From positions 4,564 through 68,563 of the forward strand of contig CAMAPP010000002.1 of NCBI GenBank assembly GCA_945860095.1: a stretch of DNA of 64,000 nt, read 5' to 3'. Origin of the DNA: Rhizobium sp. Q54 (GTDB lineage Bacteria > Pseudomonadota > Alphaproteobacteria > CADEGL01). Positions 3,469 to 44,726 of this stretch are shown in pieces. The stretch's first letter is position 1. Each line of letters opens with the position of its first letter. The notes under the pieces are model-generated. The model saw only the letters and a program-made list of their open reading frames with translations. It did no database searches and was not told where the DNA came from. A program made the translations under genes and the position numbers.

Positions 3469-4815
3469 CTAGGGCGCGAGCACGACAAGATCGAACGGCC
3501 GCTCGGTGCCCTCCACACGGCGCATGGCGCGAATCTCTTTATCGTCCGATGGGCGATAACCTTGGGTCCGCGCGAGCTCGAAAGTCTCAAGCGTGGTCAA
3601 GCCGCGGACCCCCTCGCTCTTCGTGTGCTTCTCGAGCTTGGCCGACAGATTCACCGCCTCCCCAATGACCGTGTATTCGAGCCGCGTCGCGTCGCCCACG
3701 GCGCCGAATATGATTCGGCCCGTGGCGACGGCGGCACCGACCCGCAAGGGTTCTAGCGACGCACCCGCCCGCGCCCGGTTCCAAGACTCGATCTCGGCGA
3801 GCACCTCGTCGACCGCGCGTAGAGCGTCGGCGGCATAGGTATCGCTGGGAATGGCGGCGCCGAAGGTCGTAAGAATTCCGTCGCCGAGGAATTTGTCGAT
3901 GCTGCCCCCGTGACGCTGGATGATCGGCACCGCGCGGGCCTGATATTCGGCAAGAAGCGCGATCGCCTGATCGGGCTCGACCCGTTGGGCGTAGCGCGTG
4001 AAGCCGCGCAGATCGAGATTGAGGATTGCGGCGTCGCGCGGCACGCCATGGCCCGCGGTAACCCGGTGTTCGGACGAAGTGATTCGCCGGGCGATCTCGG
4101 GCGCGAAGAAACGCGAAAGATCCCGCGCCGCCATGCCTTCGGACACGGAACGCACCAATAGCCCGCGCGCCCGCGCGATCGCGACGGCGAGCACGCCCGT
4201 GAATACCGCGATCGACAGAATTTTGTCGATCTCGGCACCGATCAGAATGCGGTTCGAAGTCATGTAGAGCACGTAGTCGCGCGTGATTCCGGCATCGGCC
4301 GCATCCGCGTCGATCGCGAGATGCGCGAGCCACAGCCAGCCAAGCGCCGCGACCGCGCCCGACAGCAGAACGAATCGCGCCTCGAACCGCAGGGCGCGAA
4401 GAGCGATGAAGATGAACAGGTAGGCGAACGTCGGAACCTTGAGCACGAAGGACGGCGGCTGGACGTACTGAATATGAAAACTCCAAATCAGCGACAGCAG
4501 CAGGCCGATATCGATGACGACCGAGAGCGCCAGGAACCAATCGGGCAATCGCCGGACGCACGCGACCGCCAACCGAAGAATCGTGAACGCGAGATAGGAC
4601 GCCAGAGCCCAGGGCACCGGATGAAACTCGACCCGCTCGTCGAAGGTCTTTGGCGAGACGAAGTAGAACATCCCGAAGACCAGAACGACGAAAAGTTGAA
4701 TCCAGCCGATCATAATTTCGCTGCGGTCTTGCTGGAGGCGAATTGCCGCGCGCACCCGCTCGGGCAAGGCGGATTCGTCGATTGCGGCGAAGAGCTTGCG
4801 CAACGTGGCGATCAT
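3469..4815 (-). CDS. membrane-anchored class III adenylate/guanylate cyclase
   Basis: N-terminal multi-TM region followed by a cyclase homology domain (…FLGDGILTTFGAAIP…RVGAAVATGRIIFGAVGD…EYTVIGEAVNLSAKLE). Start taken at the second Met (4815) so that it overlaps the upstream gene stop by 4 nt. The track ORF extends to 4860. Confidence 0.8.
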   Translation of the reverse strand: MIATLRKLFAAIDESALPERVRAAIRLQQDRSEIMIGWIQLFVVLVFGMFYFVSPKTFDERVEFHPVPWALASYLAFTILRLAVACVRRLPDWFLALSVVIDIGLLLSLIWSFHIQYVQPPSFVLKVPTFAYLFIFIALRALRFEARFVLLSGAVAALGWLWLAHLAIDADAADAGITRDYVLYMTSNRILIGAEIDKILSIAVFTGVLAVAIARARGLLVRSVSEGMAARDLSRFFAPEIARRITSSEHRVTAGHGVPRDAAILNLDLRGFTRYAQRVEPDQAIALLAEYQARAVPIIQRHGGSIDKFLGDGILTTFGAAIPSDTYAADALRAVDEVLAEIESWNRARAGASLEPLRVGAAVATGRIIFGAVGDATRLEYTVIGEAVNLSAKLEKHTKSEGVRGLTTLETFELARTQGYRPSDDKEIRAMRRVEGTERPFDLVVLAP

Positions 4816-15741: not shown

Positions 15742-16779
15742 GTGAGAATTTCGTCGACCAGGGCCGGCGCTTTCTTGGGTGACGCTTGGTTGAAGTTCGT
15801 CGGAGTTTTGCTTTATGGGCCGGATTTGGGCCTGGTTCGCGAACGGGCAGCGGCGCTGGCGGGAGCCGCGCTCGGCGCTAAATCTGGGCTGTTCGGCGCG
15901 ATCGAATTGCCGGGTTCGCGGGTCAAGGATGAACCTCGGCTTTTGATCGACGAGTTATCGATGTTGGCATTCGGCGGTGGCCGGAAGCTGGTGGTTGTCC
16001 GGGATGCCGGGGATGGCGTGTGCAACGCGGTTGCGATGGCGCTGCGGTCTTGGCCGGAATTGGCCTGCTTGATCGTCGAAGCGGGCGATTTGCCGAAACG
16101 GTCAACGCTGCGGGAATTGTTTGGGGGCGATTACCGTTTGGCGGAACTCGCCTGTTATCCCGACAGCGAGGAGGTCGTTGCCGATTTGGTGCGGGCGGGC
16201 TTGGCAGGGGGTGAAGTTCGGGCGACCGAGGACGCGCTAGGCTATTTGGCGGCGCGGCTTCAGGGCGACCGCCTGGTAATTCGCTCGGAGATCGCGAAGA
16301 TTGGGACGTTCGCAGGACCCGGCGGCGTTCTCGATCTCGAGTCTGCGATCGAGATATCGGGCGCGATTGGTGAAGTCTCCATGGACGCGGCGCTTCACGC
16401 GGCATGGACCGGTCGGATTGAGGATGTCGATGCCGCAGTGCACGAATGTTTGTCTCAGGGTGTCGCGCCGGTTGCACTGATCAGAGGAGCGATCCGGAAT
16501 CTCGAGCGCTTGGTACTTGTGCGCGCGGCTGTTGATGGGGGTGCCGCGATCGACGATTCCGTCCGTGCATTGCGGCCGCCGGTGTTTTTCCGGCATGTCG
16601 AGGATTTCAAGCGCGAGGTTCGTACTTGGCCGCGCGAATCTCTGCACCGCGCGCTCGAACGCTTGCTCGAGGCTGAGGTCCGCTGCAAATCTAGCGGTCT
16701 TCCCGATGCTTCGGTTTGCGGAAGAGCGTTTCTTGAAATCGCGACGGCCGCACGGTTCCAATCGGCCGCGCGGCGTTAG
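15742..16779 (+). CDS. holA: DNA polymerase III subunit delta
   Basis: VLLYGPDLGLVRERA motif and conserved leuS-lptE-holA order. The track ORF starts at 15703. A GTG at 15742 avoids overlap with lptE. The start is uncertain. Confidence 0.8.
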   Translation: MRISSTRAGAFLGDAWLKFVGVLLYGPDLGLVRERAAALAGAALGAKSGLFGAIELPGSRVKDEPRLLIDELSMLAFGGGRKLVVVRDAGDGVCNAVAMALRSWPELACLIVEAGDLPKRSTLRELFGGDYRLAELACYPDSEEVVADLVRAGLAGGEVRATEDALGYLAARLQGDRLVIRSEIAKIGTFAGPGGVLDLESAIEISGAIGEVSMDAALHAAWTGRIEDVDAAVHECLSQGVAPVALIRGAIRNLERLVLVRAAVDGGAAIDDSVRALRPPVFFRHVEDFKREVRTWPRESLHRALERLLEAEVRCKSSGLPDASVCGRAFLEIATAARFQSAARR

Positions 16780-17648
16780 GTGAGGTGAGTTTTCGTCAAG
16801 CGCAGGACCAAGTCGTCGAGCTGCTCAAGGGATTGGTAACGGATTGTGAGCTCACCAGCCGTGCCGTTCGTTTTGAGGCCGACCTTCAATCCGAGTGCAC
16901 CGGACAATTGTCTTTCCAAAGCGGCGATGTCCGAATTTTTTTCGGACGGAGCCTTGTTGGGCGGCGGGTTTTTGGCGCTGCGCACCATGGCTTCGACTTG
17001 GCGCACGCTCATGTCGCGGGAGACCGCGATTCGTGCCAAGGCTTCCGCGTTCGGCAGGCCAATCAGCGGCCGGGCGTGTCCAGGGGAAAGTTTCTTCTCG
17101 TCGATAAGCGCTTGGATGGTGTCCGAGAGCTCGAGCAGTCGAACGGCGTTGGCGATGTGGCTGCGGCTTTTCCCTAAGATCCGCGCGAGGTGGTCTTGGG
17201 TGTGGCCAAACTCGGTCATCAAGCGGCGATATCCGAAGGCTTCCTCGATCGGCGATAGATCGGCGCGCTGGATGTTTTCGACCAGAGCGATTTCGAGGAC
17301 GTCGCGATCGCTGAGTTCGCGCACGACGACCGGGATTTCGTGAATGCCCGCGCGCTGCGCCGCGCGCCAGCGCCGTTCCCCGGCGACGATTTCATATTCC
17401 TTATCGGCCAGACGGCGGACCAGGATTGGTTGCAGGACGCCCTTTTCCTTGATCGAGTTCGCGAGCGATTCAAGTTCCGGCTCGTCAAATCTGCGCCGCG
17501 GCTGGAACGGGCCCGGGCGAAGTTGGGTTAGCGGCAGGCTACGGACGAATTTCTCCGCTTCTTGGTCCGCTGCCGGTGGAGTTTCATCGCCGAGGAGAGC
17601 AGAGAGCCCGCGCCCGAGGTGTCGGCGTTTTTGGTCGTCGGAGTTCAT
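16776..17648 (-). CDS. parB: chromosome partitioning protein ParB
   Basis: ParB/Spo0J motifs (…GERRWRAAQRAG…) and a KorB-like HTH. Its stop overlaps the convergent holA stop. Confidence 0.95.
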   Translation of the reverse strand: MNSDDQKRRHLGRGLSALLGDETPPAADQEAEKFVRSLPLTQLRPGPFQPRRRFDEPELESLANSIKEKGVLQPILVRRLADKEYEIVAGERRWRAAQRAGIHEIPVVVRELSDRDVLEIALVENIQRADLSPIEEAFGYRRLMTEFGHTQDHLARILGKSRSHIANAVRLLELSDTIQALIDEKKLSPGHARPLIGLPNAEALARIAVSRDMSVRQVEAMVRSAKNPPPNKAPSEKNSDIAALERQLSGALGLKVGLKTNGTAGELTIRYQSLEQLDDLVLRLTKTHLT

Positions 17649-18439
17649 TGCCGCAGGGCTTGTTCGCGGCGAATAACTTCGCTGGCCAGGTGGATATAGG
17701 CCTGCGAGCCGGAGCAGCGAAAATCATAGAGCAGCACCGGCTTGCCGTACGAGGGCGCTTCGGAGACTCGGACGTTTCGGGGAATAACGGTCTGGTAAAC
17801 CTTCTCGCCGAAATGCCGGCGAACATCGGACGCCACGAGATCGGAGAGGCTGTTTCGCTTGTCGAACATCGTCAAGACAAGGCCCTGGATTTCAAGGCGC
17901 GGATTGAGATTTTTTCGGACCCGCTCGATGGTTCGCATGAGGTGGCTCAGGCCTTCCAGCGCATAGAACTCGCACTGCAATGGCACCAGGACCGCGTCCG
18001 CGGCAGTTAGAGCGTTGAGCGTTAACAAGCCTAGAGCGGGCGGGCAGTCGATCAGAATATAGCTGTAATCGGCCTTGCGGTCGCGGATGGCCGCGCGCAA
18101 TCGATATTCGCGCTCCGACATCCCGACGAGCTCGAGTTCCGCGCCCGTAAGATCGATGGATGATGGAATGACGGATAGGCCGGGGATGGCCGTCGCGATC
18201 GTCACATCTGCGATTCCGCGGCGGTCGATTATGAGATCGTAGGTGCCCTGAACGCGCTGGTGTTTTGTCACGCCGAGTCCCGTACTGGCGTTGCCCTGAG
18301 GGTCCAGATCGATGAGCAAAACTTTCTCGCCGACCGCCGCCAACGCAGTTCCTAGATTGACTGCGGTGGTGGTCTTTCCCACTCCGCCTTTCTGATTGAC
18401 GATTGCGATAACGCGCGGCCCACTCGGGCTCGAATGCAT
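17645..18439 (-). CDS. parA: chromosome partitioning ATPase ParA
   Basis: Deviant Walker A motif (IAIVNQKGGVGKTTTAVNLG). Start placed at MHSSPSGPRVIAI. The track ORF extends to 18493. Confidence 0.9.
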   Translation of the reverse strand: MHSSPSGPRVIAIVNQKGGVGKTTTAVNLGTALAAVGEKVLLIDLDPQGNASTGLGVTKHQRVQGTYDLIIDRRGIADVTIATAIPGLSVIPSSIDLTGAELELVGMSEREYRLRAAIRDRKADYSYILIDCPPALGLLTLNALTAADAVLVPLQCEFYALEGLSHLMRTIERVRKNLNPRLEIQGLVLTMFDKRNSLSDLVASDVRRHFGEKVYQTVIPRNVRVSEAPSYGKPVLLYDFRCSGSQAYIHLASEVIRREQALRQ

Positions 18440-18452
18440 GGTGGCACCGGGT

Positions 18453-19082
18453 TCATGATGAATTTGGGGCATGATGGATATCTTCGATCTCAAGAACGCA
18501 CCCGTCGCGGCCGGCTTGGCTGGGGTGAATGCGTGCGGTTAGTTTCCTCTTTTTTTGAGCCAGAATCAATTCATGTTGTACCTTAGAACCCTTCAATAAC
18601 AATATATGGGATTGGGGCGCTATCAAATGGGTGACCAGATCAAGGAAGCTATCGATCTCGGCCACCGCCCTTGCGGTTATGGTCAATGCCGGTGTGGGGA
18701 CATATTCCGAAATATCGATGCTCAAGACTTGCGCCGTGGCGCCGGTGCGATGAACGACGGCACGAAGAAACGCACATTTTCGCTTATCACGCTCCACCAG
18801 GTCGATCCGGTCTTCACCAAGAATCGAAAGCACAAGGCCCGGAAAGCCAGCACCCGAACCAACATCCACTATTCGGCCGCGGTCTTTGCGCAAAAATTGG
18901 CGGAGTTGAGCGGAGTCTAAAAAATGCCTTGTCCAGAGATTAGGCAGAGTATTGTTGCCAATTAAATTTATTGATTTTTGCCATTTTGAGAGTTCTTCGG
19001 CGTATAGAGCAAGTTTTTGAGTCGTTTCACGTGAAACGTTTGCAAACTTATGAAATACAACGCTTTCTTGAACTTGCGTCAT
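18453..19082 (-). CDS. rsmG: 16S rRNA (guanine527-N7)-methyltransferase RsmG
   Basis: N-terminal …NVSRET… motif and SAM-binding loop ([11 protein letters not shown]). Position between mnmG and parA. Confidence 0.9.
19023..19038. repeat. perfect palindrome CGTTTCACGTGAAACG (copy A), inside rsmG codons 13-18
   Basis: Self-complementary 16-mer read from the sequence. It encodes (N)VSRET using the rare codons gtt, tca, cgt and gaa in a high-GC genome. Confidence 0.9.
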
Positions 19083-20947
19083 GCAACACGATTTTGTCTA
19101 TTTTGCGAAAACTGAGCCATGCGAATCAAGGCCCCCAAAGCGGCCGGTGTCATGCCCTCAATTCTACTAGCTGCGCCGACCGTTAATGGGCGGTTCCTGT
19201 TCAGTTTTTCTCGCAATTCTCCAGATAATTCCGGCAAATTTGAATAGTCGAGGTTATTTGGGAGATATGCCATATCTTCGCGCCGAAAGGCTGCGATATC
19301 GCGATTTTGTCTATCGATATAGCCCGCATAGCGGGCCTCTACTTTCAATAACTCAATTATATTCAATGGTATAAGTTGAATTTCCGGCCATATTTCGATG
19401 AGTTTTTCAAGGGACAAGCTCTCATAGGAGAGGAGCTTTAAGGCTGATCGCCATTCTCCATCCGCGTTGACGTCAACGCCATGGCGCTTGATTTGGCTGG
19501 GGAGCGCCTTGAGGGAGCCAAGCATACCGCGGCATTTCTCAAGCACGTGATTCTTCTCGATCCAAGAAGCCCGGCGCCTATCCTGAACGAGACCGACCGC
19601 GACTCCAATCGGGGTAAGACGCTGGTCGGCATTGTCCGAGCGCAAACTAAGCCTGAATTCGGCCCGTGACGTGAACATGCGATACGGCTCGGTTGCGCCG
19701 TGCGTGACCAAATCATCGATCATAACGCCAATAAGCGCGTCCGCTCGGCTGAGCACGAGGCCCTTTACGCCTAGGGCCCTCGCTGCCGCATTGGCCCCGG
19801 CCAAGATCCCCTGGCCGGCGGCCTCTTCATAACCCGTCGTGCCATTTATTTGCCCGGCAAGGAAAAGTCCGGGACAACGCTTAACCTCCAGCGTATTGGT
19901 CAGCTCACGTGGGTCGACAAAATCGTACTCTACGGCATAACCTGGCCGCAGGATTTTGGCCCGTTCTAGGCCTGGGATCGTCCGCACGAAGGCCGCCTGC
20001 ACTTTTTCCGGGAGCGAAGTCGAAATCCCATTTGGGTAGATGGTATCGTCATCCAAGCCCTCGGGCTCAAGGAAGATCTGGTGCGATTCTCTGTCGCCGA
20101 ATCTTTCAACCTTATCTTCAATCGAGGGGCAGTACCGCGGTCCGACACCGCTAATCCCCCCTGAGTGCATGGCAGAAAGTGCCATGTTCTGACGGATGAT
20201 TTCATGCGTGCCCGCCGTCGTTCGGGTAATATGACAGGGAACTTGGGCGGTCTCGATGGTTTTCGACAGAAAAGAAAATGGCTCCGGTGGATTGTCGCCC
20301 CACTGAACTTCGAGGCCCGACCAATCTATGGTCCGGCCATCCAGCCGTGGCGGGGTGCCGGTTTTCAGTCGACCGAGGACCATACCGAGCTTTCTTAAGC
20401 GCGACGAAAGAGCCGTAGAGGCGGCCTCCCCTACGCGTCCGCCGGGCTCTTTCCTAGATCCAACGTGCAATGTTCCATTCAAGAACGTGCCGGTGGTCAA
20501 GACCACGGCCTTGGCATGAATCCGGGTACGATCAGCCAAAAACAGCTCAAATCCACCACCCAAAACCGGAACGATATCCTCGACCTCGCCCTTACCGATT
20601 GAAAGCCCAACTTGACCGGCCAACAGACACTGAATCGCGGAACGGTAAAGCTTTCGATCGGCTTGAGCTCTAGGGCCATGCACTGCAGCCCCCTTGCTAC
20701 GATTGAGAACACGAAATTGTATTCCCGCCTTATCGATTGCGCGCGCCATGATTCCATCAAGCGCATCAATTTCCCGAACAATCTGGCCCTTAGCCAAGCC
20801 CCCAATTGCGGGATTGCAGGACATCTCACCAATTCTTGAGGGATCGGTGGTCACCAAAAGCGTAACAGCCCCCATGCGCGCAGATGCGGAGGCAGCTTCA
20901 CTGCCAGCGTGCCCACCCCCAATCACGATAACTTCGTATCGATTCAT
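19079..20947 (-). CDS. mnmG: tRNA uridine-5-carboxymethylaminomethyl(34) synthesis enzyme MnmG (GidA)
   Basis: FAD-binding N-terminus ([16 protein letters not shown]) and about 620 aa. Start placed at MNRYEV. The track ORF's MFHVKH… extension is the palindrome read as protein. Confidence 0.95.
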
Positions 20948-20995
20948 GATTCTATGCCCTACATCACATGCCAAATTTTCGTAAATTAGACCCGA

Positions 20996-21013
20996 ATGTT
21001 TCACGTGAAACAT
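20996..21013. repeat. perfect palindrome ATGTTTCACGTGAAACAT (copy B1)
   Basis: Lies in the mnmE-mnmG intergenic region, about 50 nt upstream of the mnmG start codon. Confidence 0.9.
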
Positions 21014-21032
21014 TAAAATTCGCCCTTGGTAA

Positions 21033-21050
21033 ATGTTTCACGTGAAACAT
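21033..21050. repeat. perfect palindrome ATGTTTCACGTGAAACAT (copy B2), abutting the mnmE stop codon
   Basis: Second identical 18-mer, 20 nt from copy B1. The sequence between B2 and mnmG, read on the minus strand, resembles an rsmG 5' end ([10 protein letters not shown]). Confidence 0.9.
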
Positions 21051-22387
21051 CACTTCCCTATGCAGAAATCGGCGAAGATTGAGTCCAATACCTCTTCGGC
21101 CGAAATCAGCCCAACCAATCGGCCCAGCGCGTTTGTCGCAAATCGAATATCCTCGACGCATAAGACCATATCTGGTTGTACCAATGCCCGATTCATCGCT
21201 TTGAGACTCTCCTCCAGCGCCGCTCTTTGTCTCGGCCGAGAAATAGCCGAGATCCCGGATTGCGGCACCAGAGCCCGCACGGCTCGAGATAACTCTCTCA
21301 ACAGGGTATCTATTCCCGATCCCGTTTTTGCCGAAATTGCCAGCCCACCCTGTCGCACCACCTCCTGAGCAGCCGCGCCAAGTAGGTCAATCTTGTTCGT
21401 AACCGGCAATATCGTGCCCCTTAACGGGCCTAACCCTTTCACGATCTTCTCGCACCCTTCGCTCTCATCGCTGAGTGCCACAATCAAATCCGCCTCTCGC
21501 GCCGCTCGTTTTGCGCGCTCTATTCCCTCCCGCTCGACCGGGCCCACGGGAGTCCGCACCCCCGCAGTATCGAACAGAATGACCAATGCCCCATCCACAT
21601 CCAATCGAACCTCAAGGACGTCGCGTGTTGTACCCGGTCTATCGGTCACGATCGCGACATCCCGTTTGGCAAGAATATTCAAGAGGCTCGACTTCCCCAC
21701 ATTGGGGGGACCAATGATCGCGACACGGATACCTTGCCGAACCAATTCCCCCCGGTTCTCGTTCGCCAAAAAACTCGCGGCCGCATCCGCGAGCAGGGAT
21801 AGCCGTGCTCGCGCGTGTTTTGGAAGGGTATCCGGGACATCCTGGTCCGAAAAATCGATATCGGCCTCAAACATGGCCAAGATTGCGATCAACTCGAGCC
21901 GCCATGCGAGAAATTTGGCCGACACGCCGCCTTGCAGCTGATCTAGGGCCTGAAGGCGTTGTAATTCTGTTTCAGCCGAAATTAAGTCCGCCAGGCCTTC
22001 TACTTCCACCAAGCCCATCTTACCGTTGAGATAGGCCCGTTTCGAAAATTCACCGGGCTCCGCCGGCCTAACGCCCTCAAACCCAATCAAAGTCCCAGCC
22101 AGCGCCGTTGTAACCGCGATGCCGCCATGGACATGGAACTCGACCATTTCCTCGCCCGTGAAACTAGCCGGGGCCGGGAACCAGATCACCAATCCCTGAT
22201 CGATGATTTTATCCGTCTTCGGATCATGCAGAACACGCAACGCCGCACGTCGCGGCAAATTAGGCGGATCACCCGTTATATCTAGAACAATGCATGAACA
22301 TTTTGGGCCGGACAGCCGAACAACCGCAATGGCCGCGCGACCATGCCCGCTCGAGAGCGCAAAAATAGTATCGCCCGAACTCATCAC
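21050..22387 (-). CDS. mnmE: tRNA modification GTPase MnmE (TrmE)
   Basis: G-domain motifs (GPPNVGKSSLLN, DTAG, TNKIDL) and C-terminal …CIGK. GTG start as given by the track. Confidence 0.95.
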   Translation of the reverse strand: MMSSGDTIFALSSGHGRAAIAVVRLSGPKCSCIVLDITGDPPNLPRRAALRVLHDPKTDKIIDQGLVIWFPAPASFTGEEMVEFHVHGGIAVTTALAGTLIGFEGVRPAEPGEFSKRAYLNGKMGLVEVEGLADLISAETELQRLQALDQLQGGVSAKFLAWRLELIAILAMFEADIDFSDQDVPDTLPKHARARLSLLADAAASFLANENRGELVRQGIRVAIIGPPNVGKSSLLNILAKRDVAIVTDRPGTTRDVLEVRLDVDGALVILFDTAGVRTPVGPVEREGIERAKRAAREADLIVALSDESEGCEKIVKGLGPLRGTILPVTNKIDLLGAAAQEVVRQGGLAISAKTGSGIDTLLRELSRAVRALVPQSGISAISRPRQRAALEESLKAMNRALVQPDMVLCVEDIRFATNALGRLVGLISAEEVLDSIFADFCIGK

Positions 22388-27464: not shown

Positions 27465-28751
27465 TCAGGTGTTCATGGCCTCGAAGAAATCCGCATTGTT
27501 CTTCGAGTGCTTTAGCTTGTCGACCAGGAATTCCATCGCATCGGTGACGCCCATCGGCAACAGGATGCGCCGCAGCACCCACATCTTCGACAGCACGCCC
27601 TTGTCGACCAGAAGCTCTTCCTTGCGCGTGCCCGAGCGCGTGATATCGATCGCGGGCCAAGTGCGCCGGTCGGACAACTTGCGGTCCAAGATGATTTCCG
27701 AATTGCCGGTGCCCTTGAATTCTTCGAAGATCACTTCGTCCATGCGCGATCCGGTATCGACCAGCGCCGTGGCGATGATCGAGAGCGAGCCGCCTTCCTC
27801 GATATTGCGCGCCGCGCCGAAGAAGCGTTTGGGCCGCTGCAGGGCGTTCGCATCCACGCCGCCCGTCAACACCTTGCCCGAGGACGGTACGACCGTGTTG
27901 TAGGCGCGGGCAAGGCGCGTGATCGAATCGAGCAGAATAACGACATCGCGTTTGTGTTCGACTAGGCGTTTAGCCTTCTCGATCACCATCTCCGTGACTT
28001 GCACATGCCGAACGGCGGGCTCGTCGAAGGTCGAGCTGATGACCTCGCCCTTCACCGAACGTTGCATGTCGGTGACTTCTTCCGGCCGCTCGTCGATCAA
28101 GAGGACGATCAGATAGACCTCGGGATGATTGGCCGCGATGGAGTGCGCGATATTCTGCAGCATCACGGTTTTGCCGGTGCGCGGCGGCGCCACGATTAAC
28201 CCGCGCTGACCCTTGCCTAGCGGCGTGATCAAATCGATGACCCGCGTGGTCAGATCCTTGGTCGTCGGCTTATCGATCTCGAGCTTCAAGCGCTGCTCGG
28301 GATAGAGCGGCGTCAGATTGTCGAAATTGATCCGGTGTCGGACCTCTTCGGGGTCGCCAAAATTGATTGTGTTGACCTTGAGCAAGGCGAAATAGCGCTC
28401 GCCATCCTTGGGAGAGCGGATCTGCCCTTCGACCGTATCGCCCGTTCGCAGCCCGAAGCGGCGGACCTGGCTCGGCGAGACATAGATATCGTCGGGACCG
28501 GGCAGATAATTCGATTCTGGCGAGCGTAGAAAGCCGAAACCGTCTTGCAAGGCCTCCAACACGCCATCGCCATGAATGGCGACATCGTTCTCGGCCAAGG
28601 ATTTGAGGATCGCGAACATCATGTCCTGCTTGCGCAGATTGCTCGCGTTCTCGACTTTCAATTCCTCGGCAAATGCCAGCAGATCAGCCGGACTTTTTTT
28701 CTTAAGGTCTTGAAGAAAAATGCCTTTGTCGTGTGCCGTTTTAAGATCCAT
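27465..28751 (-). CDS. rho: transcription termination factor Rho
   Basis: N-terminal RNA-binding domain and RecA-like ATPase ([12 protein letters not shown]…). 428 aa, with a long 5' leader. Confidence 0.95.
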
Positions 28752-28935
28752 GGTCCGCTCGCCCGCAAATGGGGCGTCTCGCTTGTGGGAGGGGTACCGA
28801 ATTGACCGGTCCGGGGAGGAGTCTGCGCGAACCGGACGGGCCGGGGCGCGATAGGGCCTGGGAGACCCCGAGTAACATGCTCGCGACCGACAATATAGGC
28901 CGGTCGCGGGAAACTGCCAAGCCTTCGTAACAAAA

Positions 28936-29376
28936 TTAAAACGGTCTGACCACCACCAGGACCACGATCGCGATCAAAAGGACCGTCGGGACTTCGTTCG
29001 CGAACTTGAAAAACCGCGCCGCGTGCCGGTTTTCTCCCGCCGCGAAAGCCTTGCGCCACAGCGCCATGCCATGGTGCAAAACGGTCAGCGCGCCAACCAG
29101 ACCCAGCTTCGCGTAAAGCCAGCCGGACCGCCAATCGGCAACACCCGGAGTGAGCAACAAAGCAATGCCGAAAACGAACGTGGCGATCATCGCCGGATTC
29201 ATGATCGCTCGCAGCAATCGGCGCTCCATCACCTCGAAAGTCTTGCCCGTCTCCGCGCTCGCATCCGCATGATAGGCAAAGAGCCGCGGCAGATACAAAA
29301 GACCCACCATCCAAGCGATCGCACTGACTATATGCAGGGCTTTTATCCACGGCTGGTATGCCAGCAGCCAATCCAT
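28936..29376 (-). CDS. hemJ: protoporphyrinogen IX oxidase HemJ (UPF0093/CopD-like membrane protein)
   Basis: Four-TM protein of about 146 aa ([26 protein letters not shown]…) adjacent to hemH and hemE. Confidence 0.7.
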
Positions 29377-29409: not shown

Positions 29410-30441
29410 TCATGAGGCCGCTTGCGCTAGAGGGCAGACGCTCTTGTCGGCCGGGCAAATTCGCACGCCCTCGGACGACCCGATCGGCGTTGCACCCTTC
29501 AGCGTATCGCGTACGAGGCTGGTTAGGCCGGCGATGAATTTCTCGTGCGCGGCGACCGCAGGAACCCGCGCAAATGCCGGCACGCCAACCACTTTGGCCA
29601 AGTGCCGGTATTCTTCGTCGAGTTCGACCAGGGTTTCCGAATGTTCCGACACGAACGCGATCGGCGCGACCACGATGGGCACCCGGTCTTGGGCGGCACG
29701 GCGAATTTCCTCCTCGGTCGACGGCCCGATCCATTTGAGCGGACCCACGCGGCTTTGATAGCAGACCACCCAATCCCCGGCGGCCAAGCCCAAGCGGTTC
29801 GCAATCCCTTCCGAGGTTCGCTCGATCTGCCATTGATAGGGGTCGCCGCCTTTGATCACCTTTTCGGGCAAGCCATGGGCCGAAAACAGAACGCGCGGCT
29901 TTCCGGCGAATGCGACATCGCGCATGGCCTCGGCAACGAGCTCGACTTGAGCCGCCAACCAGCCCTCGAGCCGCGGATAACAACAGACCGCGTAACTAGG
30001 TTTCACAAAACCAATCTTCGCAGTTGTACGCGCCCACGCCTTGAACGACGAGCCCGAGGTCGTGCCCGAAAATTGCGGATAGAGCGGCAGCAGCACCACT
30101 TCATCCGGATCGAATTCCTTAACGGCATCAGCTGTCTCGGCGCTCATCGGATGCCAATAGCGCATCGCAATGAATACACGCGTCTCCAGCCCAAGCGCTT
30201 TTTCCAAAGCCGCGGCCTGAAGACGCGTATTGGCAAGCAGTGGCGATCCGCCGCCGAGCTTCTCGTAGATGCCGATCGTTTTGCCCGCCCGCAGTCCGGA
30301 AATGAGCCGCGCCAGGAAGAACCGCACCACCGCCGGCACGGACAAAATCGCCGGATCGGAAAACATGTTTCTCAGGAACGGGCGAACGGATTGCGGCCGA
30401 TCGGGCGCTCCAAGATTGAACAACACGACTGCGAGCTTCAT
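29410..30441 (-). CDS. hemH: ferrochelatase
   Basis: …VVLFNLGAPD…LPLYPQFS…SAHGLPE… signature. Overlaps the hemE stop. Confidence 0.9.
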   Translation of the reverse strand: MKLAVVLFNLGAPDRPQSVRPFLRNMFSDPAILSVPAVVRFFLARLISGLRAGKTIGIYEKLGGGSPLLANTRLQAAALEKALGLETRVFIAMRYWHPMSAETADAVKEFDPDEVVLLPLYPQFSGTTSGSSFKAWARTTAKIGFVKPSYAVCCYPRLEGWLAAQVELVAEAMRDVAFAGKPRVLFSAHGLPEKVIKGGDPYQWQIERTSEGIANRLGLAAGDWVVCYQSRVGPLKWIGPSTEEEIRRAAQDRVPIVVAPIAFVSEHSETLVELDEEYRHLAKVVGVPAFARVPAVAAHEKFIAGLTSLVRDTLKGATPIGSSEGVRICPADKSVCPLAQAAS

Positions 30442-31487
30442 GCGGATTTTCCCTGGTCGCGAACGAAGCGGACGAGCTCCGCCACGTGGTCCGGCGGAGT
30501 TGCGGGTACCACCCCATGGCCAAGATTAAAAACGAAAGGCCGCGAGCGGTAAGCGGCGAGTATCCTTGAAACCTGCTCGGTCATGGCCCGCCCCCCCGCG
30601 ACGACGGCCAAGGGATCGAGATTGCCTTGCAGCACGATCTCCGCCGGGATTTCACGCGCCGCCCATGCCGGATCGACCGCCGTATCCAATCCAACCGCGG
30701 TCACCCCGGTTTCTTGGGCATAGCCGATATATTTGCCGCCAGCACCGCGCGGAAAACCGATGATTCGCGCGTCAGGAACCTCCGCCCGGACCCGCGCGAC
30801 GATATCCCGAGTGGGTTCAACCACCCAGCGTGCGAATTGATCCGGTGCCAGCACGCCTGCCCAGCTATCAAACAGCTGAACAGCATCCGCGCCGGCATGA
30901 AACTGCGCCACCAAGTGCCGGACAATCGCTTCGGACAAAAGCCGAATCAGCCGACCGAATCCATGCGGATCCGACCAAGCCCAGGTCCGCGCCACCTCGA
31001 AATCCCGGCTGGTCCGACCTTCCGTGGCATAGGCGGCCAATGTCCAGGGCGCGCCGGCAAAGCCGATCAAAGCCTTTGAGGCGTCCAGCGATTGGCGGAC
31101 CGATGCAATCGCCCTATAGACCGGCTCAAGCCTGTCAACGATGCCCTCCGCCGAGAGACTCCTCAATCCCTCAACGGACCGGATGGGTTCGAGTCTCGGT
31201 CCTTCGCCTTCAACGAACCAAACTGGAATACCAACGGCATCGCAAACGACCAAAATGTCCGAAAAGATGATCGCGGCATCGAGATCGTAGCGCGCGATCG
31301 GCTGCAGCGTGACCTCAGCGGCCAAGTCTGGGCTATAGCAAAACTCTAGAAAATTGCGTGTCTGGGCACGGACTTTGCGATATTCGGGCAGATATCGCCC
31401 GGCCTGCCGCATGAGCCATAGGGGCGGCGGGCTTCGCCGCTTGCCATCGAGGGCTTCGACGACAGCCGAGACGCGATCACAAACCAT
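30438..31487 (-). CDS. hemE: uroporphyrinogen decarboxylase
   Basis: …PPLWLMRQAGRYLPEY… N-terminal signature, about 349 aa. Confidence 0.95.
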   Translation of the reverse strand: MVCDRVSAVVEALDGKRRSPPPLWLMRQAGRYLPEYRKVRAQTRNFLEFCYSPDLAAEVTLQPIARYDLDAAIIFSDILVVCDAVGIPVWFVEGEGPRLEPIRSVEGLRSLSAEGIVDRLEPVYRAIASVRQSLDASKALIGFAGAPWTLAAYATEGRTSRDFEVARTWAWSDPHGFGRLIRLLSEAIVRHLVAQFHAGADAVQLFDSWAGVLAPDQFARWVVEPTRDIVARVRAEVPDARIIGFPRGAGGKYIGYAQETGVTAVGLDTAVDPAWAAREIPAEIVLQGNLDPLAVVAGGRAMTEQVSRILAAYRSRPFVFNLGHGVVPATPPDHVAELVRFVRDQGKSA

Positions 31488-31875
31488 GGCTCGACTATCC
31501 TACTTCCCTTTAGATAATTGAATCTTTTTTTGAAGGGTAGTGGTGATTGGTCGTGTGCATAGCGGGGCTTCCCAGTCATCCACATGACTGTGGCTCCGCC
31601 AGGCCGCGCCGGGCCATGTGGCGAGCTTGTCCATAAACCGCCGGCAAGTTCGCGTGGGAGCGCAATTTGCTGTGTGGATTGCGTGTAAAGGACCGTGTCG
31701 AAAGATGGGGATGAAACTTGGTGCGGGACATGTCCCGGATATTGCCCGCGTGGTATCATTTTATCAGACATGGGACAGTTTCGCCCAAAACTCGAGATGG
31801 CACACCGCTCCAAACCCGTAAGGATTTCACCCCCACGTCGTTCCCGAGTTTGCGGCGCGGCCTCTGGATAACTCG
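31488..31875. other. candidate chromosomal replication origin (hemE-proximal intergenic region)
   Basis: 388-bp non-coding gap containing an AT-rich stretch (CTTTAGATAATTGAATCTTTTTTTGAAGG, ~31508-31536). It carries at least four DnaA-box-like 9-mers: TCATCCACA (~31576), TTGTCCATA (~31627), TGTGGATTG (~31673) and TGGATAACT (~31864). The gene context matches the hemE-Cori arrangement known from Caulobacter and relatives. Confidence 0.5.
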
Positions 31876-32697
31876 ATGTCCCGTACCTATCATCTTCACT
31901 TGGTTTCGGATTCGACCGGAGAAACCGTCGGCGTCGTCGCGCGCGCGGCCCTGGTTCAGTTCGAAGACGTGAAGGCGATCGAGCACCTTTGGTCGACGGT
32001 TCGCACCGAACGTCAGCTCGAGCGCGTGCTCTCGGCCATCGAGGCCGAGCCTGGTATTGTCATGTTCACGCTTCTGAGCCCCTTGCTGCGCGCGCGCCTG
32101 CGTAACGCGTGTGAAAAACTCGAGGTGCCTTGCATTGCCGTGCTCGACCCGGTCCTTGGCTCGCTGGCGATGTATTTCGGAACCGAGGGCAGCGGCCAAC
32201 CGGGGGGCCAGCATGCGCTCGACTCCGATTATTATCAGCGTATCGATGCCATGAACTTCGTTCTTCGGCACGACGACGGCCAAGCCACGCGCGATCTGAA
32301 CCAGGCCGATATCGTGCTCGTGGGCGTGTCCCGCACCTCCAAGACGCCGACTTGCATCTATCTTGCCAATCGCGGCATCAAGGCCGCAAACGTTCCCCTG
32401 GTGCCAGGATGCCCCACGCCGGATGAACTGCTGAACGCGACAAAGCCGTTTATCGTCGGCCTGACGAACGATCCCCAGCGCCTCGTTCAGATTCGTCGCA
32501 ATCGTTTGCGTCTGATCGAAGAAAACGCGGAAACCGAATATGTCGATATCGGTGCCGTACGATCCGAAGTCGATCAAGCAAAGCGGTTGTTCGAGGAGCA
32601 GGGCTGGCCGGTCATCGATGTCACCCGTCGGTCCATCGAGGAAACCGCCGCAGCCATCATGCAGTTGTACAACGAACGCCGCCGGCGCATCGAATGA
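31876..32697 (+). CDS. DUF299 kinase/pyrophosphorylase (PEP synthetase / PPDK regulatory protein, PpsR-like)
   Basis: P-loop …VLVGVSRTSKTPTCIYLA… and about 273 aa. Confidence 0.85.
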   Translation: MSRTYHLHLVSDSTGETVGVVARAALVQFEDVKAIEHLWSTVRTERQLERVLSAIEAEPGIVMFTLLSPLLRARLRNACEKLEVPCIAVLDPVLGSLAMYFGTEGSGQPGGQHALDSDYYQRIDAMNFVLRHDDGQATRDLNQADIVLVGVSRTSKTPTCIYLANRGIKAANVPLVPGCPTPDELLNATKPFIVGLTNDPQRLVQIRRNRLRLIEENAETEYVDIGAVRSEVDQAKRLFEEQGWPVIDVTRRSIEETAAAIMQLYNERRRRIE

Positions 32698-33323
32698 CCG
32701 GCGGACCAACCATGACCGCCGGCGCGGCGCGCCCCATCGTCCTGGCTTCGGCCAGCACGACCCGTCAAAAAATGCTTGCGGCGGCGGGCCTGGCGACGAT
32801 CTCGGACGCGGCGAATGTGGATGAATCTGCCGTCAAAGCAGCCATGGCGCGACAAGGTGCCGCTCCGCGCGAAGTAGCGATTGCTTTGGCCGAGATCAAG
32901 GCGCGACAGGTTTCGGGCCGGCATCCGGGCGCACTCGTGATCGGCGCCGACCAGATTCTCGAATGCGAAGGCCGGATGTACGACAAACCGTCTTCACTGG
33001 CCGCAGCGCGCCTGCAATTGCTTGGCTTGCGCGGCCGAACCCACACATTGGTCAGCGCCGCGGTCGTCGTACACGATGGCCGGCGACAGTGGCATGAAAC
33101 CGCCGAGGCGCAGCTGACGGTTCGCTCGTTCACGGACATGTTTCTCGATGACTATCTCGCGCGTCTCGGTGACGATGTCTGCAGGTCGGTCGGGGCCTAT
33201 CAGCTCGAAGGTCTAGGGGTTCAGTTCTTTTCCAAGATCGACGGCGATTTTTTCACGATACTCGGGGTGCCTTTGCTGCCGCTTCTGGCCTATCTCCGCG
33301 GGAACGGCGCGATCTTGTCATGA
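32694..33323 (+). CDS. maf: Maf-like nucleotide pyrophosphatase / septum formation protein
   Basis: …IVLASASTTRQKML… N-terminal motif. ATGA overlap with the upstream gene. Confidence 0.85.
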   Translation: MTGGPTMTAGAARPIVLASASTTRQKMLAAAGLATISDAANVDESAVKAAMARQGAAPREVAIALAEIKARQVSGRHPGALVIGADQILECEGRMYDKPSSLAAARLQLLGLRGRTHTLVSAAVVVHDGRRQWHETAEAQLTVRSFTDMFLDDYLARLGDDVCRSVGAYQLEGLGVQFFSKIDGDFFTILGVPLLPLLAYLRGNGAILS

Positions 33324-42631: not shown

Positions 42632-42879
42632 ATATTTCAAAGACATAAAGAAGATATATGATATTATACTTCAATTTTATTAAAAAAGAGATGGATTTTC
42701 CCGAATATTTTTGCTCAGTTGATATAGTTATAAACAAGTTATCCACAAATATTCATCAAAACCGTTAACTAATCTAATTTATCAATACGTCAAACTAACT
42801 ATTTCATATAATGTAAGTTTAATTTATTTACCATAAACATGAGAAAACATATTCACAGCGCCGTGAATCCGCTAGTGAA
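42632..42879. other. extremely AT-rich (~22% GC) non-coding island with a perfect DnaA box TTATCCACA (~42739-42747)
   Basis: By hand count there are about 49 G+C in about 219 nt, against about 65-70% GC in the flanking genes. No ORF of 60 aa or more. It sits in the convergent gap between the XRE gene and hslU. Confidence 0.85.
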
Positions 42880-44187
42880 TCAGAGTATGAACCGGCTGAG
42901 ATCCGTGCTCTTGGCGAGTTCGCCGACTCGGCTATCGACGAAATCGGCATCGATGGTAATTGCCGTGCCCGGTTGGTCGGAAGCGGTGAAGCTCACATCC
43001 TCCAAAAGGCGTTCGAGCACGGTGTGCAGGCGGCGGGCACCGATATTCTCGACGCGCTCGTTGATCTCGGCGGCCAGAGTCGCCAGCCGATCGATCGCGT
43101 CGGGGCGAAAATCGAGCGTCACATCCTCGGTCTTCAACAGGGCAACATATTGTTTGATCAGGCTGTTTTCCGGCTCCGTCAGAATCCGAATGAAATCTTC
43201 CCGGCCCAGGGCAGTCAACTCCACCCGGATGGGCAGGCGGCCCTGCAATTCGGGCAGCAGGTCCGAAGGCTTTGCCAGGTGGAAGGCGCCCGAGGCGATA
43301 AACAGCACATGATCGGTTTTGACCGGGCCGTGCTTGGTCGAGACCGTGGTGCCTTCGATCAGGGGCAAGAGATCGCGCTGCACGCCCTCGCGGCTGACAT
43401 CGGCGCCGGCACGCTCGCCGCGGGCGCAGATCTTGTCGATTTCGTCCAGGAACACGATGCCGTTCTGTTCCACGGCGGCGATCGCATCCTGCAGCACCTT
43501 CTCGTCGTCGATCAGCTTGTCGCTTTCCTGCGCCACCAGAACGGCGTGGGAATCGACGACCTTGAGCTTCTTGGTGCGGGTGCGTCCGCCGAACGCCTTG
43601 CCGAGCATTTCGTTCAAGTTCAGCATGCCGACTTGGGCGCCCGGCATGCCCGGGATGTCGAAGGTGGGTAGGGCGCTAGAGCCCTCCGCCACGGCGATTT
43701 CAATTTCCCGATCGTCAAGCTGTCCCTCGCGAAGCATCTTGCGGAATTTCTGCCGGGTCTCCGCCGAGGCGCCGTCGCCCACCAAGGCATCGAGCACCCG
43801 GTCCTCGGCGGCCAATTCCGCGTTCGCGAAAACCGATTTCCGCAATTTCTGTCGGACCATGGCGATGGAGACCTCGAGCAGATCGCGTACGATCTGCTCG
43901 ACATCGCGTCCGACATAACCGATTTCGGTGAACTTGGTCGCCTCGACCTTGATGAATGGCGCCTCGGCAAGGCGCGCCAGGCGCCGCGCGATCTCGGTTT
44001 TTCCGACCCCCGTGGGACCGATCATCAGGATGTTCTTCGGCAGAACTTCCTCGCGCAACGGTTCGGGCAATTGCATGCGTCGCCAGCGGTTGCGGAGCGC
44101 GATCGCCACCGCGCGCTTAGCCTTGCCCTGACCGACGACGTAGCGGTCGAGCTCGGAGACGATTTCGCGCGGGCTGAACGAGCTCAT
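42880..44187 (-). CDS. hslU: ATP-dependent protease ATPase subunit HslU
   Basis: AAA+ Walker A motif ([16 protein letters not shown]) and about 435 aa. Confidence 0.95.
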
Positions 44188-44726
44188 AGCGCTTCGAGCG
44201 CCACGTTCGTGTTGGTGTAGATGCAGATCCCGGCCGCGACCGCCATCGATTTCCGCGCGATCGCCTCGGCATCGAGCTCGGGCTGATCGAACAACGCGCG
44301 CGCGGCCGCCAGCGCGTAGGGGCCACCCGAGCCGATGCCAATCATGCCGTCCTCGGGTTCGAGCACGTCGCCCGTGCCGCTCATCACCAAGGACGTGGTG
44401 CGATCGGCCACGGCCATCATGGCTTCAAGCCGGCGCAGAAACCGATCGGTGCGCCAATCCTTGGCCAACTCCACGCATGCCCGGACCAATTGCCCGGGGT
44501 GTTTTTCGAGTTTCGATTCGAGGCGCTCGAACAAGGTCAATGCATCGGCGGTCGCGCCCGCGAATCCGGCGATTACCCGGCCGTCGCTCAATCGGCGAAC
44601 CTTACGGGCGTTCGACTTGACGATCGTCGCGCCGAGGGTCACCTGGCCGTCGGCCGCGATCACCACCCGGTCGCCTTTGCGGATCGAGAGCACGGTCGTG
44701 CCGTGCCACAGGGAAGAATGGTCCAT
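44184..44726 (-). CDS. hslV: ATP-dependent protease subunit HslV
   Basis: …[13 protein letters not shown]…IAGFAG… with the alphaproteobacterial N-terminal propeptide. Overlaps the hslU start. Confidence 0.95.

Follow-up and report, generated by a model that had tools for sequence, protein, structure and literature searches.

The question raised by this locus is what role is played by a palindromic word that stands three times around mnmG, one copy lying inside the coding sequence of rsmG. The first-pass annotation of the region gave the sequence and the coordinates of the three copies correctly, and concluded that the word matches no known operator. This conclusion does not hold, since TGTTTCACGTGAAACA is, letter for letter, the published parS consensus bound by chromosomal ParB, and both parA and parB are found in the same operon. 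The word serves as parS in 25 papers. All three sites fit the parS consensus tGTTNCACGTGAAACa, two of them as perfect 16-mers and one with a perfect 14-bp core. It is very probable that the three palindromes are parS, the cis-acting centromere of a chromosomal ParABS system (Table 1). Such sites are an already known kind of chromosome-segregation element, and no new biology is implied by their presence.

Table 1. Predicted parS sites and the genes of the surrounding operon (positions in the 64-kb window, i.e. the whole stretch of DNA that was analysed).
Feature	Position	Strand	Remarks
Predicted distal parS	21034..21049	.	perfect 16-bp consensus TGTTTCACGTGAAACA; within 18-bp palindrome 21033-21050
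Predicted proximal parS	20997..21012	.	perfect 16-bp consensus TGTTTCACGTGAAACA; within 18-bp palindrome 20996-21013
Predicted rsmG-embedded parS	19023..19038	.	CGTTTCACGTGAAACG; rsmG codons 15-20, N-V-S-R-E-T
parB	16776..17648	-	centromere-binding CTPase clamp, predicted binder of the three sites; TIGR00180 ParB/RepB/Spo0J, E 2e-56
parA	17645..18493	-	Walker-type partition ATPase; ParA-family matches, Pfam AAA_31 and CbiA
rsmG (gidB)	18453..19082	-	host gene of the embedded parS; TIGR00138, E 6.6e-35, above cut-off
mnmG (gidA)	19079..20947	-	nearest gene downstream of the paired parS sites; TIGR00136, E 7.5e-229
mnmE (trmE)	21050..22387	-	gene upstream; stop codon touches the distal parS; NF003661, E 1.1e-154

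The intergenic pair consists of the 18-mer ATGTTTCACGTGAAACAT, which occurs twice between mnmE and mnmG. The identity and the positions of the two 18-mers were as first annotated, whereas the spacing, given as 20 nt, was measured to be 19 nt (37 bp from centre to centre); between the 16-mers the spacer is 21 nt. The distal 18-mer shares one base with the mnmE stop codon (21050-21052). The proximal 16-mer stands 49 nt upstream of the probable start of mnmG. A mechanically called mnmG reading frame reaches up to 21013 because the palindrome contains an ATG; the TIGR00136 match begins at residue 26 of this long frame, and the true start is most likely the ATG at 20947 and not the one at 21013 inside the palindrome. 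In the embedded copy, CGTTTCACGTGAAACG, the 14-bp core is perfect and the outermost positions are C/G, not T/A. The 14-mer GTTTCACGTGAAAC was matched three times, against 0.15 matches expected from shuffled sequences (0 of 100 shuffles gave three). A search of the 64-kb window placed all three sites within 2 kb, and no further copy with up to 4 mismatches was found in the rest of it.

The genes around these sites follow the order mnmE-mnmG-rsmG-parA-parB and form one operon with them, which is a classic arrangement. The predicted ParB contains all of the Pfam domains ParB_N, HTH_ParB and ParB_C, as well as the motifs GERRWRAA (the CTP motif) and LGRGLSALL. Its nearest solved structure is the Caulobacter ParB-parS complex 6T1F (E 6.5e-64), and the alignment to this structure indicates that the equivalents of Q162, G170, K171, S172, N178 and R204 (Caulobacter numbering) are all kept. 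The predicted ParA has KGGVGKTT, which fits the deviant Walker A motif KGGxxK[ST]; its start codon is approximate, relatives being annotated at 275 aa. In RsmG, the Pfam GidB match begins at residue 21, right after VSRET.

The ParB family also includes Noc, which recognizes a related 16-bp palindrome, NBS; the two palindromes are unlike at two half-site positions, and recognition of NBS requires Q173, K179, K184 and R201 (Jalal et al. 2020). At these four positions the ParB encoded here has R, A, E and G. That is, the parS-specific R173 and G201 are conserved (6T1F alignment compared with Jalal et al. 2020), and positions 179 and 184 are not Lys as they are in Noc. With a score of 228.6 bits against a Noc model cut-off of 315 and specificity residues of the ParB type, an assignment to Noc and NBS was ruled out.

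The embedded copy reads on the minus strand AAC GTT TCA CGT GAA ACG, i.e. N-V-S-R-E-T, and begins at nucleotide 45 of rsmG. It had been described as a run of rare codons in a genome of roughly 67% GC. The latter figure was too high, for the GC content of the window is about 0.63 (0.54-0.69 in 2-kb bins), locally 0.54, with a GC3 of 0.69. As for the codons, TCA (9% of Ser), CGT (11.5% of Arg) and GTT (19% of Val) are indeed uncommon, but GAA (47% of Glu) is not. From codon usage, the joint probability of GTT-TCA-CGT-GAA is about 9e-4.

Related loci were then compared, 81 of them being counted (GC 0.26-0.72) and the statistics coming from 80 loci of a metagenome scan with alignment; these loci share ancestry and are not phylogenetically independent. 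An in-frame parS was found at the same rsmG codons in 60 of the 81, with the codons retained. Every VSRET locus for which codon usage could be tabulated (54/54) has GTT-TCA-CGT-GAA, compared with 0.24 loci expected, a statistic which overstates the number of independent events because of the shared ancestry. In loci lacking the DNA word the peptide is not conserved. The codon identity and the lack of conservation of the peptide where the word is absent argue for the earlier proposal that selection acts on the DNA word, not only on the peptide. VSRET was present in 116 of the 120 best RsmG homologues, and VPRET or VPRGT appears where tolerated parS variants occur.

In 30 of 36 related loci, mnmG is preceded by at least one parS at a distance of no more than 200 nt; 24 of those 30 have a single copy there. 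The codons and the intergenic copies alike persist in relatives, rather than NVSRET being encoded with GC-rich codons and the copies upstream of mnmG being absent. In one relative, L001, the same three sites are present, and the paired sites are invariant while the 21-nt spacer between them has diverged; the sites of another, L082, are identical to those described here. Both of them also share the C...G flank variant of the embedded site. Since this variant is uncommon (5 of 60 embedded sites), the copy in rsmG may be a weaker site. A scan of genome contigs with RsmG returned one close relative only, a sign of sparse sampling of the lineage. The rsmG-embedded parS appears to be a class-wide and ancient alphaproteobacterial site, and its conservation is well supported by these comparisons.

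The sites might instead be an operator for another transcription factor that co-regulates mnmG and rsmG, as the first-pass annotation had read them. The pair lies ahead of mnmG, 49-102 nt from its start codon, palindromes are typical of operators, and in mycobacteria a parS lies over the −10 of a gidB promoter and was proposed to be regulatory (PMC2346475). However, there is no need for a further factor: the word matches parS exactly, and the operon codes for a cognate ParB whose specificity residues fit it. If the sites do regulate, ParB itself would be the simplest agent. Moreover, the gidAB promoter of Vibrio cholerae was published as not regulated by ParA1 or ParB1, and a scan of 20850-21150 gave no convincing promoter, the one sigma-70-like match being uninformative because its −10 covers the mnmG start codon. 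It seems, therefore, highly improbable that the word serves a factor other than ParB. An RNA element, in which the two palindromes pair in the mnmE-mnmG transcript to act as a terminator, a stabilizer or an RNase III site, seems more improbable still. Folding does predict a hairpin for the minus-strand RNA of 20975-21070, its 19-bp stem carrying a 17-nt loop (−30.1 kcal/mol, z = −4.6), but two copies of one palindrome will always be complementary to each other, the 24 of 30 loci with a single upstream copy cannot form such a stem, and the third copy lies within a coding region. No U-tract follows the stem and no terminator-like site was found in 20850-21150; an intrinsic terminator was rejected on these grounds, in agreement with the earlier preference for a protein-binding DNA site over a terminator. 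Rfam gave no match in the whole 64-kb window.

The least credible reading, with scarcely any probability left to it, is that the intergenic copies were left behind by a duplication of the rsmG 5′ end, or belong to a REP-like or mobile repeat. In one frame the copy at 20996-21013 resembles the RsmG peptide, and a vestigial or duplicated rsmG start had been suggested from it. This idea was rejected, since any parS in that frame spells VSRET, the N coming from an AAY beside the word. In addition, beyond the word itself the three copies have no flanking sequence in common, and the flank that spells NFN...FG here reads differently in L001. With regard to a repeat, the word is not frequent and randomly dispersed in a REP-like manner within the 64-kb window, which contains just three copies, one lying in coding sequence. 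Unlike those of a mobile repeat, they recur at orthologous positions across dozens of divergent genomes.

The reading as parS leads to the question of where the cluster lies with respect to the replication origin. The gene hemE is a marker of the alphaproteobacterial origin region. Here it stands about 10 kb from the parS operon, and hemE, hemH and rho are 6-10 kb away. The cumulative GC skew of the 64-kb window has its minimum near 32-34 kb, and three DnaA boxes, each with one mismatch, were found at 31.5-32.8 kb. These neighbouring genes, the skew minimum and the DnaA boxes suggest that the parS cluster may lie close to the origin.

A similar organization has been described in other bacteria. 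Caulobacter crescentus, whose alphaproteobacterial ParB is the nearest solved relative of the one here, has the same parS consensus (t/cGTTt/cCACGTGAAAca), and its sites form a cluster of a few kb beside parAB, at a distance of about 8 kb from the origin; a 260-bp segment contains two strong sites, and some sites are intragenic (PMC5815017). Its sites number five to seven and are graded in strength, as compared with three in 64 kb here, two of them perfect. In Caulobacter, binding, spreading and essentiality have been demonstrated, whereas the system described here is predicted from its sequence. In Hyphomonas neptunium, two perfect TGTTTCACGTGAAACA sites precede the par operon, and hemE is about 7 kb away (Jung et al. 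2019, PMC6650430). ParB binds them in EMSA, and binding is lost upon mutating two bases (PMC6650430). A third site embedded in rsmG is not mentioned in that study, in which function was tested, in contrast to the sequence evidence presented here. In Bacillus subtilis and Mycobacterium the same 16-bp palindrome occurs as here (Casart et al. 2008, PMC2346475). In mycobacteria the palindrome of Lin and Grossman (1998) has been located both ahead of gidB and within parA, in the neighbourhood of the origin, and a potential influence on promoter usage was considered (PMC2346475). These organisms belong to other phyla, and the host genes of their embedded copies are other than the one here.

By analogy with Caulobacter, Hyphomonas and Bacillus, ParB dimers (encoded 1.4-4.3 kb away) would recognize the 16-bp palindrome via their helix-turn-helix. 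ParB on parS would then bind CTP, close to a clamp and slide onto the flanking DNA, and the sliding clamps would build up a partition complex over this putative origin-proximal region. Nucleoid-bound ParA-ATP would pull this complex, and with it the sister origin, toward the opposite cell half. Three sites within 2 kb of one another may give a higher local load of ParB, and retention of the rsmG copy by selection at the DNA level would have fixed the pentapeptide VSRET in RsmG. From these better-known systems we infer that ParB binds the sites and spreads from them, that the sites serve in segregation and, if there is any, an influence on how the operon is transcribed.

It is conceivable, although we consider it unlikely, that the embedded site and the pair provide ParB feedback on mnmG-rsmG-parAB transcription and that the link between VSRET and parS is as yet undescribed. 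No description of this link or of the rsmG-embedded site was found in the searchable literature, the coverage of which did not extend to Livny 2007 and Toro 2008; the link may already be documented.

As parS sites mark the centromere of the chromosome, the predicted sites would mean that the window comes from around the replication origin of an alphaproteobacterium that has not been cultured. For the window itself the value of the finding is chiefly one of annotation. Because of the ATG within ATGTTTCACGTGAAACAT, ORF callers wrongly extend the N-terminus by a stretch that begins with MFHVKH, and the conserved VSRET of alphaproteobacterial RsmG would be the footprint of a DNA-binding site, not a functional motif of the protein. 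The overlap of VSRET with the putative parS would then be a textbook case of a cis-element constraining a coding sequence.

The 14-mer GTTTCACGTGAAAC occurs three times in the window, at 19024, 20998 and 21035, while 0.15 matches are expected in shuffles and three matches were reached in 0 of 100 shuffles. It forms the core of two perfect 16-mers between mnmE and mnmG and of a third site inside rsmG (see table). The palindrome sequences and positions claimed in the first-pass annotation proved exact, and no extra copy was found in the 64 kb with up to four mismatches allowed. The two intergenic 18-mers are separated by a gap of 19 nt (37 bp centre to centre), and the rsmG copy reads AAC GTT TCA CGT GAA ACG, that is, NVSRET. 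These codons had been called disfavoured in a genome of 67% GC. The DNA is indeed GC-rich, but the window is at about 0.63 (2-kb bins 0.54-0.69; GC3 0.69) and the local value, that of the 18-22 kb stretch, is 0.54. Similarly, TCA (9% of Ser), CGT (11.5% of Arg) and GTT (19% of Val) are disfavoured, but GAA is not (47% of Glu); the joint probability of the four codons under the codon usage is about 9e-4.

Coordinates of the palindromes and neighbouring genes in the window
Feature	Position	Strand	Remark
16-mer TGTTTCACGTGAAACA	20997-21012		perfect; between mnmE and mnmG
16-mer TGTTTCACGTGAAACA	21034-21049		perfect; between mnmE and mnmG
16-mer CGTTTCACGTGAAACG	19023-19038		inside rsmG, from nt 45 of the gene
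parB	16776-17648	minus	
parA	17645-18493	minus	
rsmG	18453-19082	minus	
mnmG	19079-20947	minus	
mnmE	21050-22387	minus	
ORF, 709 aa	23009-25138	plus	no NCBIfam match
ORF, 206 aa	25211-25831	plus	no NCBIfam match
ORF, 359 aa	26010-27089	minus	no NCBIfam match
rho	27465-28973		
hemH	29410-30525		
hemE	30438-31499		
hslU	42880-44424	minus	

The sequence TGTTTCACGTGAAACA is that of the canonical parS of bacterial chromosomes, which serves ParB/Spo0J as a centromere-like binding site, and the exact string appears with the term parS in 25 published papers. One review gives it for Hyphomonas neptunium, with two sites, and gives t/cGTTt/cCACGTGAAAca for Caulobacter. The two perfect Hyphomonas sites precede the par operon, at a distance of about 7 kb from hemE; binding of ParB was demonstrated there by EMSA and was abolished by a two-base mutation (PMC6650430). 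Mycobacteria carry the 16-bp palindrome of Lin and Grossman both upstream of gidB and within parA (PMC2346475). The Caulobacter sites form a cluster about 8 kb away from the origin, with the five strongest within 5 kb and two strong ones within 260 bp, and some are inside essential or high-fitness-cost genes (PMC5815017). The earlier statement that the word matches no known operator does not hold, as LexA, Fur, Irr and CtrA boxes had been compared and parS, which it matches, had been omitted. The reading as a protein-binding site is supported by the exact parS and the cognate ParB encoded in the operon. The palindromes are the parS centromere of ParABS, a well-known element, in its usual alphaproteobacterial arrangement.

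The parB product carries the domains ParB_N, HTH_ParB and ParB_C, the N-terminal peptide LGRGLSALL and, in the CTP-binding domain, the arginine patch GERRWRAA. Its closest solved relative is Caulobacter ParB (6T1F, E 6.5e-64; Caulobacter numbering below). In the alignment with 6T1F, the DNA contacts Q162, G170, K171, S172, N178 and R204 described by Jalal et al. (2020) are all kept (TQ.., GKSR, ..AN and PGHAR). The same work distinguishes parS binders, with R173 and G201, from Noc, with Q173, K179, K184 and R201; here residues 173 (R) and 201 (G) are those of ParB, and neither 179 (A) nor 184 (E) is Lys. Noc identity was rejected on these specificity residues and on a Noc model score of 228.6 against a cut-off of 315 bits. 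ParA has the deviant Walker A motif KGGVGKTT. From the ParB domains, the contact and specificity residues and the ParA motif, all testable defining features of ParABS are recognized in the encoded proteins, and binding and segregation are predicted.

Beyond parB come two plus-strand genes, holA and leuS. No NCBIfam family matched the three ORFs between mnmE and rho at the applied thresholds, and past hemE lies an ORF containing coaE on the opposite strand. Alphaproteobacteria typically have their origin beside hemE. On a coarse scale, the cumulative GC skew is lowest at 32-34 kb, and three one-mismatch DnaA boxes are present at 31576, 31863 and 32816. Together with the position of hemE, these features put the palindromes some 10-12 kb away from the probable origin, and 31500-33200, beside hemE, is probably the oriC region. 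GC falls to 0.54-0.57 in this stretch; the ORFs 31756-32832 and 32765-33151 gave no NCBIfam family match and may not be genes. The sole perfect DnaA box in the window, TTATCCACA, is intergenic at 42739-42747, upstream of hslU, in a local GC dip (0.58). In Hyphomonas, about 7 kb separate parAB from hemE, which is plotted there as the marker of the origin (Jung et al. 2019, PMC6650430).

In the close relative L001, an alphaproteobacterial MAG with 87% identity in RsmG, all three sites recur in the same places. Both intergenic sites are invariant and the spacer between them has almost wholly diverged, the classic footprint that selection on such sites leaves. L082, a third relative, likewise retains CGTTTCACGTGAAACG in rsmG. 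Downstream of the embedded site, about 100 nt (18900-19022, rsmG codons 21-60; alignment A3, columns 103-200) are AT-rich and show hardly any synonymous differences among the three close relatives, whose mnmG is only about 85-90% identical.

The mechanical mnmG ORF (644 aa) owes its start, ATG 21013, solely to the ATG that opens the 18-mer. The MnmG model match begins at its residue 26, and ATG 20947 gives a typical MnmG N-terminus. The parS word, with its internal ATG, encodes MFHVKH in one frame and VSRET in a second, so that ORF callers produce N-terminal extensions, for example RsmG entries beginning MFHVEQ or with a second, upstream VSRET (cases among homologues P0070, P0075, P0088 and P0115 and loci L016, L017 and L023).

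Other explanations of the palindromes were considered. An operator for another transcription factor is unnecessary, given the exact parS and the cognate ParB. It is possible that the mnmG-proximal pair modulates operon transcription in a secondary role, as has been put forward for an M. bovis gidB promoter (PMC2346475); no such regulation was observed at the Vibrio gidAB promoter, and the role is unsupported here because the scan found no credible promoter near the pair. The two copies could also pair as a hairpin in the mnmE-mnmG transcript: on the minus strand, 20975-21070 gives a stem of 19 bp that closes a 17-nt loop (-30.1 kcal/mol, z -4.6). It follows the mnmE stop codon directly and could affect the transcript. 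However, this stem follows automatically from the identity of the two palindromes, lacks a U-tract in a negative terminator scan and has no Rfam match, and most relatives have a single upstream parS copy; the hairpin is probably incidental. A REP-like repeat was rejected from the low copy number in the 64 kb and the conserved orthologous positions. The suggested vestigial or duplicated rsmG 5' end was also discarded, as VSRET is parS in one frame, the flanks of the copies are unrelated and the L001 flank differs.

By the mechanism known for the family, ParB dimers would nucleate on the three parS sites, take up CTP, form closed sliding clamps and extend across the adjoining few kb. The partition complex would then stimulate nucleoid ParA-ATP and move to the opposite cell half. 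Site clustering would raise the local ParB concentration, as has been suggested for Caulobacter (PMC5815017).

VSRET was present in 116 of the best 120 RsmG homologues, most of them only 42-48% identical, within an otherwise variable N-terminus; three of the remaining four have VPRET. The Pfam GidB domain begins just after it, at residue 21. At the DNA level, 80 metagenome loci were found via peptide patterns drawn from the SAM-binding region, so that their retrieval was independent of VSRET, and were counted together with L001. An in-frame parS occupies the same rsmG codons in 60 of these 81 loci (exact 14-mer in 55 of the 60), at GC from 0.26 to 0.72; the orthologue check proposed earlier thus came out in favour of a palindrome kept as DNA. 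GTT-TCA-CGT-GAA was used in 54/54 VSRET loci with a usable codon table, where local usage predicted 0.24, although the loci are related and these are not 54 independent events. Peptide variants match known parS variants exactly (VPRET, GTTCCACGTGAAAC; VPRGT, GTTCCACGTGGAAC), and loci without the DNA word do not keep the peptide (LSDAV, VSLEA, VSQAV, VLTET and others). Selection therefore acts on the DNA word, as first proposed, rather than on the peptide. Of the 60 embedded sites, 51 have the outer T of the 16-mer and 53 the outer A, so the C...G flanks in the window are a minority variant, and its rsmG copy is perhaps a weaker site.

Synteny of mnmE-mnmG-rsmG-parA-parB is near universal in the metagenome loci. 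Of the 36 loci that cover the mnmG 5' end, 30 have at least one parS within 200 nt upstream of mnmG, and six have two, spaced 37-124 bp. By this comparison the window has the standard alphaproteobacterial layout. Locus L056 has five parS within about 800 nt (3555-4370), unusually dense, four of them inside rsmG. Upstream of mnmG, L070 has four copies of TGTTTCACGTGAATCC, the left half of parS with an altered right half, in two pairs (269-327 and 1163-1221; 43 nt within a pair, 894 nt between pairs); this looks like a duplicated segment with degenerate parS-like sites.

The link between VSRET and parS in rsmG had no description in the searchable literature, whose reach did not extend to the comparative survey of Livny (2007). 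As read from these alignments, VSRET is a DNA-imposed "protein motif", the footprint of parS, and a class-wide rsmG-embedded site that dictates this RsmG peptide is a mildly notable by-product.
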